A DNA stretch of 64,000 nucleotides from assembly GCA_963708075.1 (NCBI GenBank), contig OY970194.1:5152001-5216000 (forward strand), given 5' to 3'. The stretch comes from Sedimentisphaerales bacterium (GTDB taxonomy: Bacteria > Planctomycetota > Phycisphaerae > Sedimentisphaerales > Anaerobacaceae). The position numbers were made by a program, and so were the translations under genes. Shown in pieces: positions 53,302-59,936 of this stretch. The notes below the pieces were generated by a model. It was given only the letters and a program-made list of their open reading frames with translations. It did no database searches and had not been told where the DNA came from. Each line of letters opens with the position of its first letter. The stretch's first letter is position 1.

Positions 53302-54999
53302 TCACCACTCTGGACCAAAGGACACGGCATGGGGGGTTCTCTGGATAGAAATGTAACTAGTCAATGGCCAAGAATGAGGGGTCTGCCGCCGTCCCCAAAT
53401 GGCGACCCCAGGCAACCAGAGAAACTTGACGGCTTTGAAGTCTTTTCGTGAGCCCTCGTACTCAAAATCCACAGAGGTGACGACATCGCCGAGCTTTGCG
53501 CGGTTGCCACATACAAGGTCGGGTAGGCTTATCTCAGTGTTCCACACCAAGTGGGGTAAGGATCGCCTTATTCTCTGCAGCGTTTGGTCGTCAACGGTGT
53601 TTTCGTCCCTATCGTGGTGCGAACCCAAGTGAGCCATCAAGTCATTCGCACTTACCAAGAATGTGCGGCAGGCCAGTGTCTTTCGACCTTCGATCAACGC
53701 TCTCATCCACTTGTGTCGAGCAAGAGACGGCACGAAATTGTCGATAAGATCAAGGATGCCCTTGAGGACAGCAAAAGACACGTGTTCCGCATCCATGCCC
53801 CTAGTCCTGACTCCCTTGGGGACAAACGTAATCGCCATGCTTGGGTGAATGTTCGCGTTGACGGCGGGCAAAATAACATGATGAAGATCATCTGTGTTCA
53901 GGGTGCGGTACATCCCAAAGTTATCATCGTTGATCAGGAAGTGACATACCCATGCGGAGGTTGGAATATACTCTTTCGATGCAAGTTCCCGGTAGCTGAT
54001 TCCGGCTTCAGGTCCCCACCTATCAGTGTTGCGAGTATGGCCTAACACCGTCACAACGTGAAGCAACTGCTCGAGTTCTCCAAGTTGTGGACGTTGTATG
54101 CCTAGTATTGTCGGGCAGCAGGATTCAACATATGGATAGATCGATGCCGCAGCATCAACGTCAGGCTGCTTGACGAAATCCTCCTGCAAGACGCGCAGCC
54201 CCAATCGCTTTGCTACCGTGACAATCTGTTCCACCGTCAGACCTCGGGGTCGCTGGCCAGGCGGATCGACCGGAGAGCGACCAAGCCGTCGGGCTTGGGT
54301 CCGATGGTCGATGCCAAGAATCTCGTTAATTCGTTCGCTCGTTAGTTTCTTCCTCTGTCGCCCTGCTTTCCGTTTAGACAAATTGTTGACGGCCATTTGG
54401 GCGGCGGCGTGGGCGCATACACTGGTTAACGAATTCTGCTGTGCGAAATAGCATCCGGCGATGCGGAACTCTTCGTGACGATTCGGAGTGCCTATGATTG
54501 TGACAAACTCATTCCAGCAGTGGTAGTAGTAGTTCATCACCTTGTTTTCGCACAGGCTGCCGTTATCTGCGCATTTGTACTCTCCCGGGAACGTCACGAC
54601 AGCCTCGTAAATATAGGTCATGGGCGCGACGGCCGGGGAATGATGTCGAAGGAATGAGATGGTTATGAGAACAACATAGCCAAGTATACCCTTCTGAGCC
54701 TCTGGCGTATGCCAATCTCCCCTGGGTATATTTGCGAAGAAAGTAAGGCGTTTCGCCTTGCATGATGTGATTCCCCCAGAACGTCGTCCAATAGCGGAAA
54801 ACTCCGTGAGAAGCTCGTCGTTTGGGGCGAGTTCCTCCTCAACGAGCCATTTAGCTTTCATCTTTCGCATGAGCGTACATACTCTATGGAGGGGCATCCG
54901 GTTAGGCCCCTCGCACATGTTTCGGATGTACTCATAGAAAGATATTTGCGTGACATCGGTTGGGGGTGCTGGCAGGCGTACAGCGTAGACGTCGTTCAT
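53302..54999 (-). CDS. Hypothetical protein with papain-like (C39-type) Cys-His-Asp motif set
   Basis: QQNSLTSVCAHAA, HVVTVLGH, FLINDDNFG in papain-fold order; RBS GGAGAGG. Confidence 0.6.
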   Translation of the reverse strand: MNDVYAVRLPAPPTDVTQISFYEYIRNMCEGPNRMPLHRVCTLMRKMKAKWLVEEELAPNDELLTEFSAIGRRSGGITSCKAKRLTFFANIPRGDWHTPEAQKGILGYVVLITISFLRHHSPAVAPMTYIYEAVVTFPGEYKCADNGSLCENKVMNYYYHCWNEFVTIIGTPNRHEEFRIAGCYFAQQNSLTSVCAHAAAQMAVNNLSKRKAGRQRKKLTSERINEILGIDHRTQARRLGRSPVDPPGQRPRGLTVEQIVTVAKRLGLRVLQEDFVKQPDVDAAASIYPYVESCCPTILGIQRPQLGELEQLLHVVTVLGHTRNTDRWGPEAGISYRELASKEYIPTSAWVCHFLINDDNFGMYRTLNTDDLHHVILPAVNANIHPSMAITFVPKGVRTRGMDAEHVSFAVLKGILDLIDNFVPSLARHKWMRALIEGRKTLACRTFLVSANDLMAHLGSHHDRDENTVDDQTLQRIRRSLPHLVWNTEISLPDLVCGNRAKLGDVVTSVDFEYEGSRKDFKAVKFLWLPGVAIWGRRQTPHSWPLTSYISIQRTPHAVSFGPEW

Positions 55000-56460: not shown

Positions 56461-56809
56461 GTGGTTTTTTGCTCATTTTGTCTACAGCCGTTGCTCCAGG
56501 ATCTTGGTAAACACGCCGCACGCACGAATACCCGGTATTATGAGCAGCCCGTGGGGCGGCGACAAGGGCAAAGGGCCAGGATTTCGCGGGCACTATGCGG
56601 CAGAGTGTCTGCCGGTGGACATGGCCGGTTGGAGTGCGGAGTGAGAAAGGCGAGTGTGAAGTTTGATGTTTGAAGTTTGAAGTAAGCGAGCGGCAGGGCC
56701 GGGTCTTCTCTGCGGCCTTCTGAATCTCTGACTTACGAATTACGATCTATGATTCGTTCTGGAAATCTGCGTTGCTAACTCGCAACAACTGAAAAAGATT
56801 TCCAGATCT

Positions 56810-58344
56810 TCATGCGGCGGCTTTGTTAAGTTGTTCTGTGGTGGCCTTTTGCGTTAGCGAGATGGTAGCGATGATTTTGGCTCCGTTCGCGGTCAGGCGA
56901 TACTTGCGAGTCTTGGGCAGACGGCGGATGATCTTGTGCTCTCGCAATAGCCGCAGCAGATACGTCACCTTCGCCGAGACCTCCTTGGCAGGACGGTTTG
57001 GATAGAGACGGCCGGCAATATCCCGATTGCGGAAATCCCCGACCAGTCCACAGGTCGCCACCGCCGCCAGCAGTTGCTGGTCCGCCTCGGACCAGGGTCG
57101 CAGCGCCCGGATCGATTTGCCCCTGCGGATGTGACGCCGGCAGATGGGCGAGAACCACTTCTTCCACTCGCTCACTGGTGTCGAGCTTGGCCAGGGCTTC
57201 GAGGTAGCGGTCATTGACTTGTTGCGAGACTTGACTGCGGGCGTATAAGTCCACGATGCCCTTGCTCATGGGCAGCATCCTCTTGGAACCCTGGGGATCG
57301 CGTTCGGACCGGCGGTAGACACGAAAGGCCCGAGCGTTGTTGATCGTGCACTCCGTACGCAGGATCGAGCCGGCCTTGTCATAGACCTTGACGGAGTTGG
57401 CGTGTGCCTGGTGCTTGACCCGAATTCCTTCGGGACGATCCCGGTAACTGCTGATCACCTCCTCCTGGCAGTTGGGATACAGACGCTTGCCGAGGAACCG
57501 CAGCACATCCTTGCTGCCAAAGGCGATCATGGAGCCACGCACCAGTTGGGGATAGATACGGCCCAACGCCTTGGGATCATCAAAGGCGATATCCGTCGCC
57601 CATTCGGTTCTCATGACTGGTCCAGTAGTAGTGCAAAGGAAAACCGGCAAACATCGTCTCGTGGGCCGGATTGAGGAATCGTGCGATGCGGCCGAACTGC
57701 CGGCACCAATCGGTGCGGTGCAGTTGGTCCATCAATGCCTGAGCCCGTGGAAAATCAGCCATCCAGGGAAAGCAGTTGTCACACCGCCGGTACGCCAGAT
57801 GCTCTTGATCCATCCTCTTGGCCAGCCATTCGCGGCCGTTCATCCACATCTGAATGGCAAAGGGAAACCACGTTTGGATGCGGGCGCCCATGAACCCGAA
57901 GTAGGCATCGTACCAGTAATGGTACAGGTGCATGCACTTGCCTTGAAACAGCTCCAAATCCAGCGTCTTGGCCTGGCGATTCTTATGAAGCTTGTAGGTC
58001 ATGCATGGCTCAATCGTACGCAGAATGCAAATCAGTCCCTCCCGGATGCCATCGCGGGCAGCGATGTCCAAAGCGACTTGTTCCTTATTGGTTCGGCTGG
58101 AGTGCAGGTACACATTGGGTCGGCCGGCCTGTTCGGCCTTGGCCACAGAGGCCTGGATCAGTTGCGCCGTCTTGTCCAGGGCGTACTGCTTGAAGTCCTT
58201 CATGAGAATGCTGCGATACGCCAGGTAGGAACACATCCCCGCCAGGTTGGCCACCAGGCGAAGGGTCCCACGAAAAACGATGCGGTCCCAGCCGCTCAAA
58301 ACCCCTATAATGTGCTTCTTGTGCTTCTCCATGAACGATTGCAT
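56810..58344 (-). CDS. ~510-aa putative transposase/replication-initiator-like protein with C-terminal winged helix; two frameshifts
   Basis: ORFs 57580..58383, 56826..57650 and 56810..57214 join after removing one base near 57610 and one near 57152. Motifs GWDRIVFRGT, EWATD, KVYDK..ILRTE, FRNRDI...YLLRLLR...RKYRLT; RBS AAGGAGG. Confidence 0.7.
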
Positions 58345-58429
58345 GGCATCCTCCTTGAAAAAACAGGTTGTCAGGTACAGCAACCAGCATAGCAGGGATG
58401 GATGCCTTTTTCATTCCAGAGGCTTGTGA

Positions 58430-58643
58430 TCATCCTTTTCCTTTTTGCCCTCGATAGGCTTGGGGCAAAAAGGAAAAGGGTGACCATCGTGGACAACAAG
58501 CGGGGCCAGCAGCGTCCACGGAGTGTGAGCAAGAAAAATGACAGGCGAGTCACGAGGGCGGATTCAACATCGCCGAGGATCGCGACTCTCGCTGGCGGCC
58601 CAGACTCGTGACCGAGACCACGCCTGGCATGTTCTTGCCACAC
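58430..58643 (-). ncRNA. Candidate structured non-coding leader (RNA or ssDNA)
   Basis: Stems 58430-58450/58463-58483 (20 of 21 bp), 58488-58494/58514-58520, and nested 58523-58535/58632-58643, 58542-58547/58621-58626, 58549-58556/58605-58612. Confidence 0.4.
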
Positions 58644-58979
58644 GCAGTAGCTGCGGTCGAACGAGAACGCACATGCGATACGCCTTTGGTTGCGGCCGAA
58701 GGCCGCGCCAAGTCCATCTGCGTTCATCTGCGGATGATGATCGGTAGTCGGTAGCCGGTTGGCGGTTGTCGGTTGAAACCCCTTGGTGTTTTTCTCCGTG
58801 GTCTCGGTGTCCTCCGTGGTTAAGAAAGCCTGGATTCCCGCGTTCGCGGGAATGACATTGTTGAAATCCGTGGTCATCCGCGTCAATCCGTGTCCAGGAA
58901 CAAGCGGTGTGCGAAGCACACCCTACCGGCTGTCGCCATTGCCGTGTCCTGACCCCTTATCGGCGTTCATCAGCGTTTA

Positions 58980-59873
58980 TCAGCGGTTCCGTTTTCTCGG
59001 TGTCCTCTGTGGCAATTTATTCGTCTTGCGTCTTGTCTTTGCCTTCTTACCTTTGGCCTTTTGCAGGGCGGCCGGTGTGCGGGCGAATGATGATTCGCCC
59101 CTACGCGGGTGTTGGACTCTTTTCCTGCCGGTGGATGTGCCTTTCTTATCTTCTTTCCTTCCTGCCTTCTTCCGTTCTTCCTCGCCGCCGGCGTAGACCT
59201 CCTTGCGGCGGTCGGGGGGCCATTCTTCGGGGAAGTTGAGATTGGCGAACTCGCCGAATAATTCCACCGCTTTGCGGTCGTAGGCGCGGGCGGCCTCGAT
59301 CTCATCCTTGTAATAGCCGAGCCAGATGTCCTTGCCCATGATCTTGATCTGGGCGTACCACTTGTGGCGGTCCTTCGAGTAGCCGACGCCTTTGTATTTG
59401 GATAGCGAGCCGCGCTTTTTGCGCTGGTTGCGCTGGTTCTCGTGGCGCAAACAGAGGCGCAGGTTCGGGCGGGTGTCGTCGAGCTTGTTGTGGTTGAAGT
59501 GGTCGACGATCTTGCCGGGCGGGGCCTGCAGGATCTGGCGATGCATGTAGACGATCTTTCCCTTCTCATTGCGTGCGGCGTATCCGTTCACCGAGGACCA
59601 GGTCCACCGGCTGAGCCAGTCGTAGTCGGCGGCGTCCACGTAGGCGTACAGGCCGTCGCCCAGCGGGATTCGCCGGGCGTCGCCTTCGGGCTCGGGCGGC
59701 CTGGGGCGATAGTTGCGGCAGGGGCCGCCGGAGGGTACGGGCCTCATCCGGCCGAGCGACTCCGGGTGGTTCGCACACGCCGGACGGCTCGCAAAACCCG
59801 TGACAAAGCCCTGCATCGTCTGGCATCGGTCCCAATACGCGTACACGCAATTGTGACAGTTCTCAGTCGCCAT
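58980..59873 (-). CDS. HNH endonuclease-AP2 domain protein with Cys-rich N-terminus
   Basis: AYVDAADY, MHRQIL...VDHFNHNKLDDTRPNLR (HNH_3-like), SKYKGV...WYAQI...LGYY..EIEAARAYD (AP2); N-terminal CxxC...C...C. Confidence 0.88.
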   Translation of the reverse strand: MATENCHNCVYAYWDRCQTMQGFVTGFASRPACANHPESLGRMRPVPSGGPCRNYRPRPPEPEGDARRIPLGDGLYAYVDAADYDWLSRWTWSSVNGYAARNEKGKIVYMHRQILQAPPGKIVDHFNHNKLDDTRPNLRLCLRHENQRNQRKKRGSLSKYKGVGYSKDRHKWYAQIKIMGKDIWLGYYKDEIEAARAYDRKAVELFGEFANLNFPEEWPPDRRKEVYAGGEEERKKAGRKEDKKGTSTGRKRVQHPRRGESSFARTPAALQKAKGKKAKTRRKTNKLPQRTPRKRNR

Positions 59874-59936
59874 GATCTCTCCCTTTCCATTGGTCCGCAA
59901 CGTCACTCGTCGGGCGCCCTTCGGCCCAACGTGACT

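Follow-up and report, generated by a model that had tools for sequence, protein, structure and literature searches.

The window analysed here is a stretch of 64,000 nucleotides from a Sedimentisphaerales bacterium (contig OY970194.1), and the folded region under study forms the left end of a 1.94-kb insertion element of unclassified type, of which the genome has three copies. Comparison of these copies and their flanks showed no target duplication. The features of the locus, in window positions and in the reading direction of the element's gene, are as follows.

58712..58723, minus strand: left half of the target, a host repeat of 10-nt period ending in GGAC/GAAC
56771..58711, minus strand: whole insertion element, 1941 bp here, including two extra bases
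58685..58711, minus strand: family-wide left end, consisting of 4 nt, a hairpin (58692-58706) and AACCAAA
58507..58656, no strand assigned: module part 1, a long nested stem with interruptions, whose bulges are conserved, its core at 58523-58643 and its variable inside at about 58548-58620
58488..58520, no strand assigned: 7-bp stem, which excludes the nested stem's outer helix and is missing in some homologues
58427..58486, no strand assigned: module part 2, a hairpin of 21 bp; a U-rich tract comes after it in 8 of the 12 copies that stand free of the element and in no element copy
58386..58414, minus strand: predicted transposase promoter, with -35 ATGAAA (58414-58409), 17 nt and -10 TATGCT (58391-58386)
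58345..58406, minus strand: family-wide promoter/anti-RBS hairpin, in which the RBS and ATG-adjacent bases pair with the sequence between -35 and -10
56810..58344, minus strand: transposase-like gene, ATG at 58344, the only ORF of the element
56771..56809, minus strand: right end, terminating in GTTAG-Y-ARY, whose Y and the first base of the target co-vary
56759..56770, minus strand: right half of the target, beginning with GCAGA

Compared with the intact copy at another locus of this genome, which encodes 510 aa, the window copy of the gene carries two 1-nt insertions (at about 57609 and 57154). The 510-aa protein appears to be made of a TBP-like domain (residues 2-390) and a MarR-like winged helix (394-510), and a Pfam search with it returned no match, Rep_trans (PF02486) included. 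Among 90 homologues the conserved residues are D20 (87/90), E247 (90/90), A249 (79/90), D251 (89/90), Y321, R329 and E331 (90/90 each), and the Asp/Glu/Tyr/Arg set was paired with residues of RepD by spacing only (PMC4797284), the comparison being with the catalytic Tyr, the three metal-binding acids and the RxE motif expected of Rep_trans. The protein looks as if it carried a Rep_trans-like Asp/Glu/Tyr set in a TBP-like fold, and it resembles a rolling-circle initiator. A TBP-like fold and a similar spacing occur in the Rep_trans initiators RepD and RepSTK1 (PMC4797284) and in the archaeal Rep-Arvir, in which a MarR-like winged helix is likewise fused and whose origin is a hairpin (PMC13107129). 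All of these, however, serve to initiate conjugation or the replication of plasmids or viruses, whereas the present protein is the sole ORF of a multi-copy insertion element; moreover, the catalytic context YxxK of the Rep_trans tyrosine is replaced here by KxYDK, and the Rep_trans initiators differ from the element protein also in the latter's lack of a Pfam match.

The element departs from the IS91/ISCR group in its enzyme, which has no Pfam hit and apparently a TBP-like fold in place of an HUH transposase. The element does insert without target duplication and into a specific target, as IS91/ISCR elements do, and the IS91 literature (PMC13181058) adds two further likenesses, namely unlike ends with subterminal palindromes and a single-stranded intermediate, which is plausible for this element too. 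By the same source, IS91 differs in its HUH enzyme and in possessing orf121, which the element lacks, and the element is set apart by a target, AC|RCAGA, lying in host repeats and by a 3'-end base that co-varies with the target base.

The family to which the element belongs is large (5689 cluster representatives at E<=0.001), and a literature search found no description of it or of the module motif discussed below. Insertion occurs at AC|RCAGA within host repeats, the R being assigned to the target from the period of the host repeat and not from empty orthologous sites, and the target C precedes the left end at 74 of 78 junctions across the family. Two gene-less derivatives of about 195 nt, which consist of the ends only, are inserted into the same target in this genome. 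The derivatives built of the family's two ends, of ∼195 nt and ∼65 nt, were seen at G000:C1:5900284-5900481, 6218207-6218403, 2714092 and 6808275, and about 20 left-end-like hairpins are scattered across the genome. The same genome holds a distant, truncated family member with a short leader of ∼78 nt (L024, G000:C1:5137309-5137584). The intact copy, L002, has a right flank (G000:C1:4224056) that differs from the usual target half and starts with a unique small hairpin, perhaps after a deletion or a second insertion. Two of the three copies of the element have a gene with HNH_3 and AP2 domains upstream (window 58980-59876; L002:3497-4492), in mosaic repeat arrays of the host. The analysis tells the essential ends apart from the optional parts of a large unclassified family, and these ends, of ∼30 nt and ∼40 nt, rather than the long leader, offer themselves as the substrate for experiments.

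At the 3' end, the Y of GTTAG-Y-ARY was compared with the first target base at 54 right junctions, which gave T/A at 41, C/G at 10 and other combinations at 3, so that the two co-vary at 51 of 54. Further junctions mostly agree with this pairing, while L213 disagrees. When placed on the tree, each trait changes 8 times, and the independent pairs comprise five in the same direction, none in the opposite direction and one unchanged (p 0.0625, not significant). The covariation is a hint of DNA-guided targeting, and it would be consistent with a mini-hairpin whose loop contains the junction, by analogy with the Rep_trans origins described in PMC4797284.

Leaders, i.e., the sequences from the left end up to the gene, were collected from related loci, and 84 were kept after ten duplicates and the loci without upstream DNA or a recognisable end had been dropped. 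They range from 69 to 367 nt, with 14 of at least 250 nt, and since their ends were called by pattern a few of the long ones may be mis-called. All 84 begin with a short hairpin and AACC, and nearly all finish in a hairpin that pairs the RBS. The module, in contrast to these two parts, is confined to elements at least 80% identical; among 98 loci, model R1 matches members of this clade only, and L032 (77% identity, in the same clade of 98 support) is without it. In other clades unrelated palindromic inserts occupy the same slot of the leader. One of these is a second structured insert, of ∼300 nt, in L227 and L231 of a 40-43% clade, whose sisters L214 and L215 have short leaders. In L061, L063, L067, L072, L076, L086, L091 and L109 the slot is filled by a long palindrome with TTATCCACA/TGTGGATAA-like words, which we take to be DnaA-box-like, at its borders. 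L151 retains the left end and a partial module, interrupted by another element that is presumably of IS200 type.

The stems themselves, listed in the initial annotation for 58345-58706, were all recovered: the 21-bp stem as an inverted repeat (58427-58450/58463-58486) with 24-nt arms that are 92% complementary, the 7-bp stem at 58488-58494/58514-58520 in the MFE fold, and the nested stem at 58523-58643, also in the MFE fold. Comparative structure extends the last of these outward, to 58507-58656, and the 7-bp stem competes with this outer helix and appears in the folds of only some homologues. Two family-wide parts, the terminal hairpin (58692-58706) and the promoter/RBS hairpin (58345-58406), had not been listed. 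The region folds beyond chance as RNA on both strands (z -7.88 on plus and -7.62 on minus, 0/100 shuffles each), and as DNA the values are -6.57/-5.32 for 58415-58690. The nested stem and the 21-bp hairpin together form a module of about 220 nt, for which Rfam holds no family at gathering score, with only sub-threshold miRNA-hairpin and lncRNA matches.

The suggested comparison of homologous elements for covariation brought out structural selection. In 15 pairs from 6 elements of the clade, identity is 0.91/0.86 in the two arms of the nested stem and 0.79 in the hairpin, as against 0.63 at fourfold-degenerate sites of the gene and 0.50 in the variable middle, and two-sided changes occur at 5 of 46 pairs within the clade (10 sequences). 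The module is, as far as comparison of these sequences can tell, kept under selection for its fold. The same figures bear on the reading of the module as a neutral passenger, a recently inserted palindromic repeat without function in the element. The slot does take many unrelated inserts, and members without the module persist, but the arms are far more conserved than the fourfold sites and linkers of the same elements, and the compensatory swaps at 5/46 pairs point the same way, so that we hold this reading to be very improbable.

A second reading, that of an element-encoded guide RNA choosing the target, had been proposed on the model of omega-RNA and bridge RNA. The IS110 bridge RNA and the IS200-605 omega-RNA are family-wide structured non-coding sequences beside the enzyme gene, with target-matching loops. 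The module is likewise structured, lies within the element next to the enzyme gene and is conserved in the clade, but unlike these RNAs it is optional and has no target-matching loops. Of the 84 homologous leaders 47 measure at most 120 nt, and their elements use similar targets without the module; the ends-only derivatives of ∼195 nt sit in the same target. Nor do the loops follow the insertion target, a point that had been suggested for checking: identity in the variable middle falls to 50% between elements that share a target, the internal loops are small, and the longest match is 7 nt to the target (reached by 30% of shuffles) and 6 nt to the junction (reached by 88%). Target choice co-varies instead with the element's own 3' end. 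Since the arms are conserved in the clade and no excess match to the target exists, the module appears to be selected, yet not as a guide; we regard the guide-RNA reading as largely refuted and have rejected it, as the least probable of those considered. A regulator RNA, the other role proposed for an element-encoded RNA, may still apply.

Copies of the module outside the element widen the picture. A covariance model of the block was run on 140 family genomes. Diverged copies turned up in 4 of the 140, one of them being a decayed element, and follow-up in three related genomes yielded 12 copies that lack this transposase (7, 4 and 1), of which 4 were outside the model building. In the samples searched, with only 19 candidates scored per genome, the module was seen in one family; tblastn found no protein of the element family within 1.5 kb of any of the 12. 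These free copies retain the nested stem and the long hairpin, with a loop of 5-20 nt in place of the 70-nt middle. With the free copies included (15 sequences), two-sided changes are seen at 30 of 39 pairs, with 91% paired and 0/500 shuffles reaching this, relatedness not being corrected for in these counts. Five of the 12 lie at most 140 nt downstream of a same-strand stop codon, the eight with a U-rich tract at their end belong to just two genomes, three have ∼80 nt of upstream sequence in common, and there is one inverted pair. One copy precedes a short ORF on which Pfam is silent and which, we presume, resembles the start of an ISL3 transposase. Two are placed after the stop codon of an IS110 gene and ahead of its conserved 3' region, and they belong to different IS110 subgroups. 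The guide-RNA reading might draw on these two homologues in IS110 non-coding ends, but they stand beside and not in the conserved 3' region, and the module is absent from 36 of the 38 IS110 loci (the model matches 2/38; 36 loci had at least 300 nt downstream). The conserved structured 3' regions of the two subgroups (L287-L306) are likely bridge RNAs, and varied palindromic inserts occur between them and the stop codon. A short motif like the start of the region in L287-L303 was also seen at window 56530-56560, with no IS110 gene nearby.

Dispersed intergenic palindromes are known as REP, BIME or MITE-type repeats. The module resembles them in having dispersed copies without a gene of their own (12 in 3 genomes), often just downstream of genes and with one inverted pair, and it differs in its greater length, conserved internal bulges, deep covariation and low copy number, as well as in the lack of any mobilising gene or target duplication found for it. 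It is a member of an undescribed repeat family. The most serious rival takes the module for a small non-coding RNA in its own right, or for a structured unit that is mobile, in either case of a new class. It would hitchhike in slots of non-coding sequence that unrelated insertion sequences offer, and selection on its fold would serve its own function or mobility and not the host element. Its homologues in the element clade, in two IS110 subgroups, before the ISL3-like ORF, between genes and as an inverted pair speak for it, as do the deep covariation with conserved bulges, the U-tract in 8/12 and the upstream sequence common to three copies. Against it, no shared boundary, common neighbour, promoter, target duplication or mobilising gene was found across the copies, and the range is narrow. 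L270 and L271, moreover, are preceded by a hairpin that, by eye, is like the left end of the element family, so that some free copies may represent left ends in decay and not units of their own. We consider this rival rather unlikely, though ahead of the other alternatives.

The predicted position of the promoter bears on what the block is. The region had been described as a leader upstream of the putative transposase; a folded region does lie inside the element, before a gene on the minus strand, but the predicted promoter is downstream of the structured block, and therefore the block would be upstream of the promoter and not a 5' UTR or mRNA leader. The promoter has 8/12 consensus matches, below the scanner's threshold, and is supported by its position across the family: in 59 of 84 leaders a -10-like box, TAnnnT, stands 35-58 nt ahead of the start codon, against 21.3±3.9 in shuffled ones (maximum 36, 1000 shuffles). 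The consensus scan of 58250-58800 passed no promoter and no intrinsic terminator. Because the anti-RBS arm sits between -35 and -10, the hairpin at 58345-58406 could be fully formed only in read-through RNA, although the computed opening of the RBS differs modestly (0.41 unpaired in the element's own transcript, 0.31 and 0.25 in read-through RNA). An inverted repeat over the RBS with the promoter in its upstream arm, the arrangement of RBS-sequestering ends of the IS200/IS10 type, is thus present. According to PMC4513863, the left end of IS200 has two inverted repeats, one guarding against impinging transcription and the other sequestering the Shine-Dalgarno sequence, and the likeness lies in the RBS-hiding arm contained only in read-through RNA. 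The comparison also yields differences: IS200 has an HUH Y1 enzyme in place of an apparently TBP-like one, and its repeats are short and intrinsic, whereas the large structure here has been inserted in some elements only and the scan gave no terminator.

We favour, with about an even chance of its being right, a composite left end made of the terminal hairpin, a captured module serving as an insulator or folded single-strand element, and the promoter hairpin. The terminal hairpin with AACCAAA, conserved in sequence and position, would be the cis signal for a Rep_trans-like tyrosine transposase acting on single-stranded DNA, and the promoter hairpin, from the placement of its motifs, would hide the RBS in read-through transcripts as an IS200/IS10-type safeguard. 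The module, a portable palindrome of ∼220 nt acquired by one clade, homologous to the free intergenic copies and IS110 inserts, and dispensable for mobility and target choice across the family, would most likely act in cis as an insulating structure before the transposase promoter. It could do so by pausing, termination or processing of incoming RNA, or as a folded block on a single-stranded intermediate; it may be an RNA or an ssDNA element, and either falls within the insulator reading. Classical termination is unlikely at the element, because no terminator passed the scan and the element copies have no U-tract. What tells against an insulator is that the conservation of arm and bulge sequence exceeds the need of a plain one.

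In a further alternative the module would be a folded origin, or a signal for priming, on the single strand, and would help to turn the excised single-stranded circle into double-stranded DNA. It draws on the resemblance of the protein to a rolling-circle initiator, on the folding of the module as DNA (z -6.6) and on the clade consensus, which comes out better for the strand opposite to that of the gene (-58.5 vs -44.8; G-T 20 vs 8), the one that IS91 transfers according to PMC13181058. Family-wide, z is lower on that strand in 53 of 84 leaders. The wobble bias nearly vanishes, however, once the free copies are added (32 vs 25), most family members and the short derivatives are without the module, and it also stands in IS110 elements and between ordinary genes; we deem such an origin improbable.

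Beyond the composite left end, a bolder synthesis can be offered tentatively, though we think it rather unlikely: the module would be a new class of structured RNA or ssDNA that colonises non-coding slots of unrelated insertion sequences as a modulator, and its carrier a new Rep_trans-like transposon class, which would choose its target through base pairs between TTAG-Y at the transposon's 3' end and R-CAGA of the target, formed within a hairpin that surrounds the nick. If the 3'-end/target pairing is true, targeting could be reprogrammed by editing the end of the element, and the covariation offers a one-base test of DNA-guided targeting by a non-HUH tyrosine transposase. The module is of interest in its own right, as a covarying motif of ∼160-220 nt which Rfam does not contain and which travels among unrelated elements. 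Elsewhere in the window, a 565-aa ORF (53302-54999) without Pfam match adjoins a metallophosphoesterase gene.
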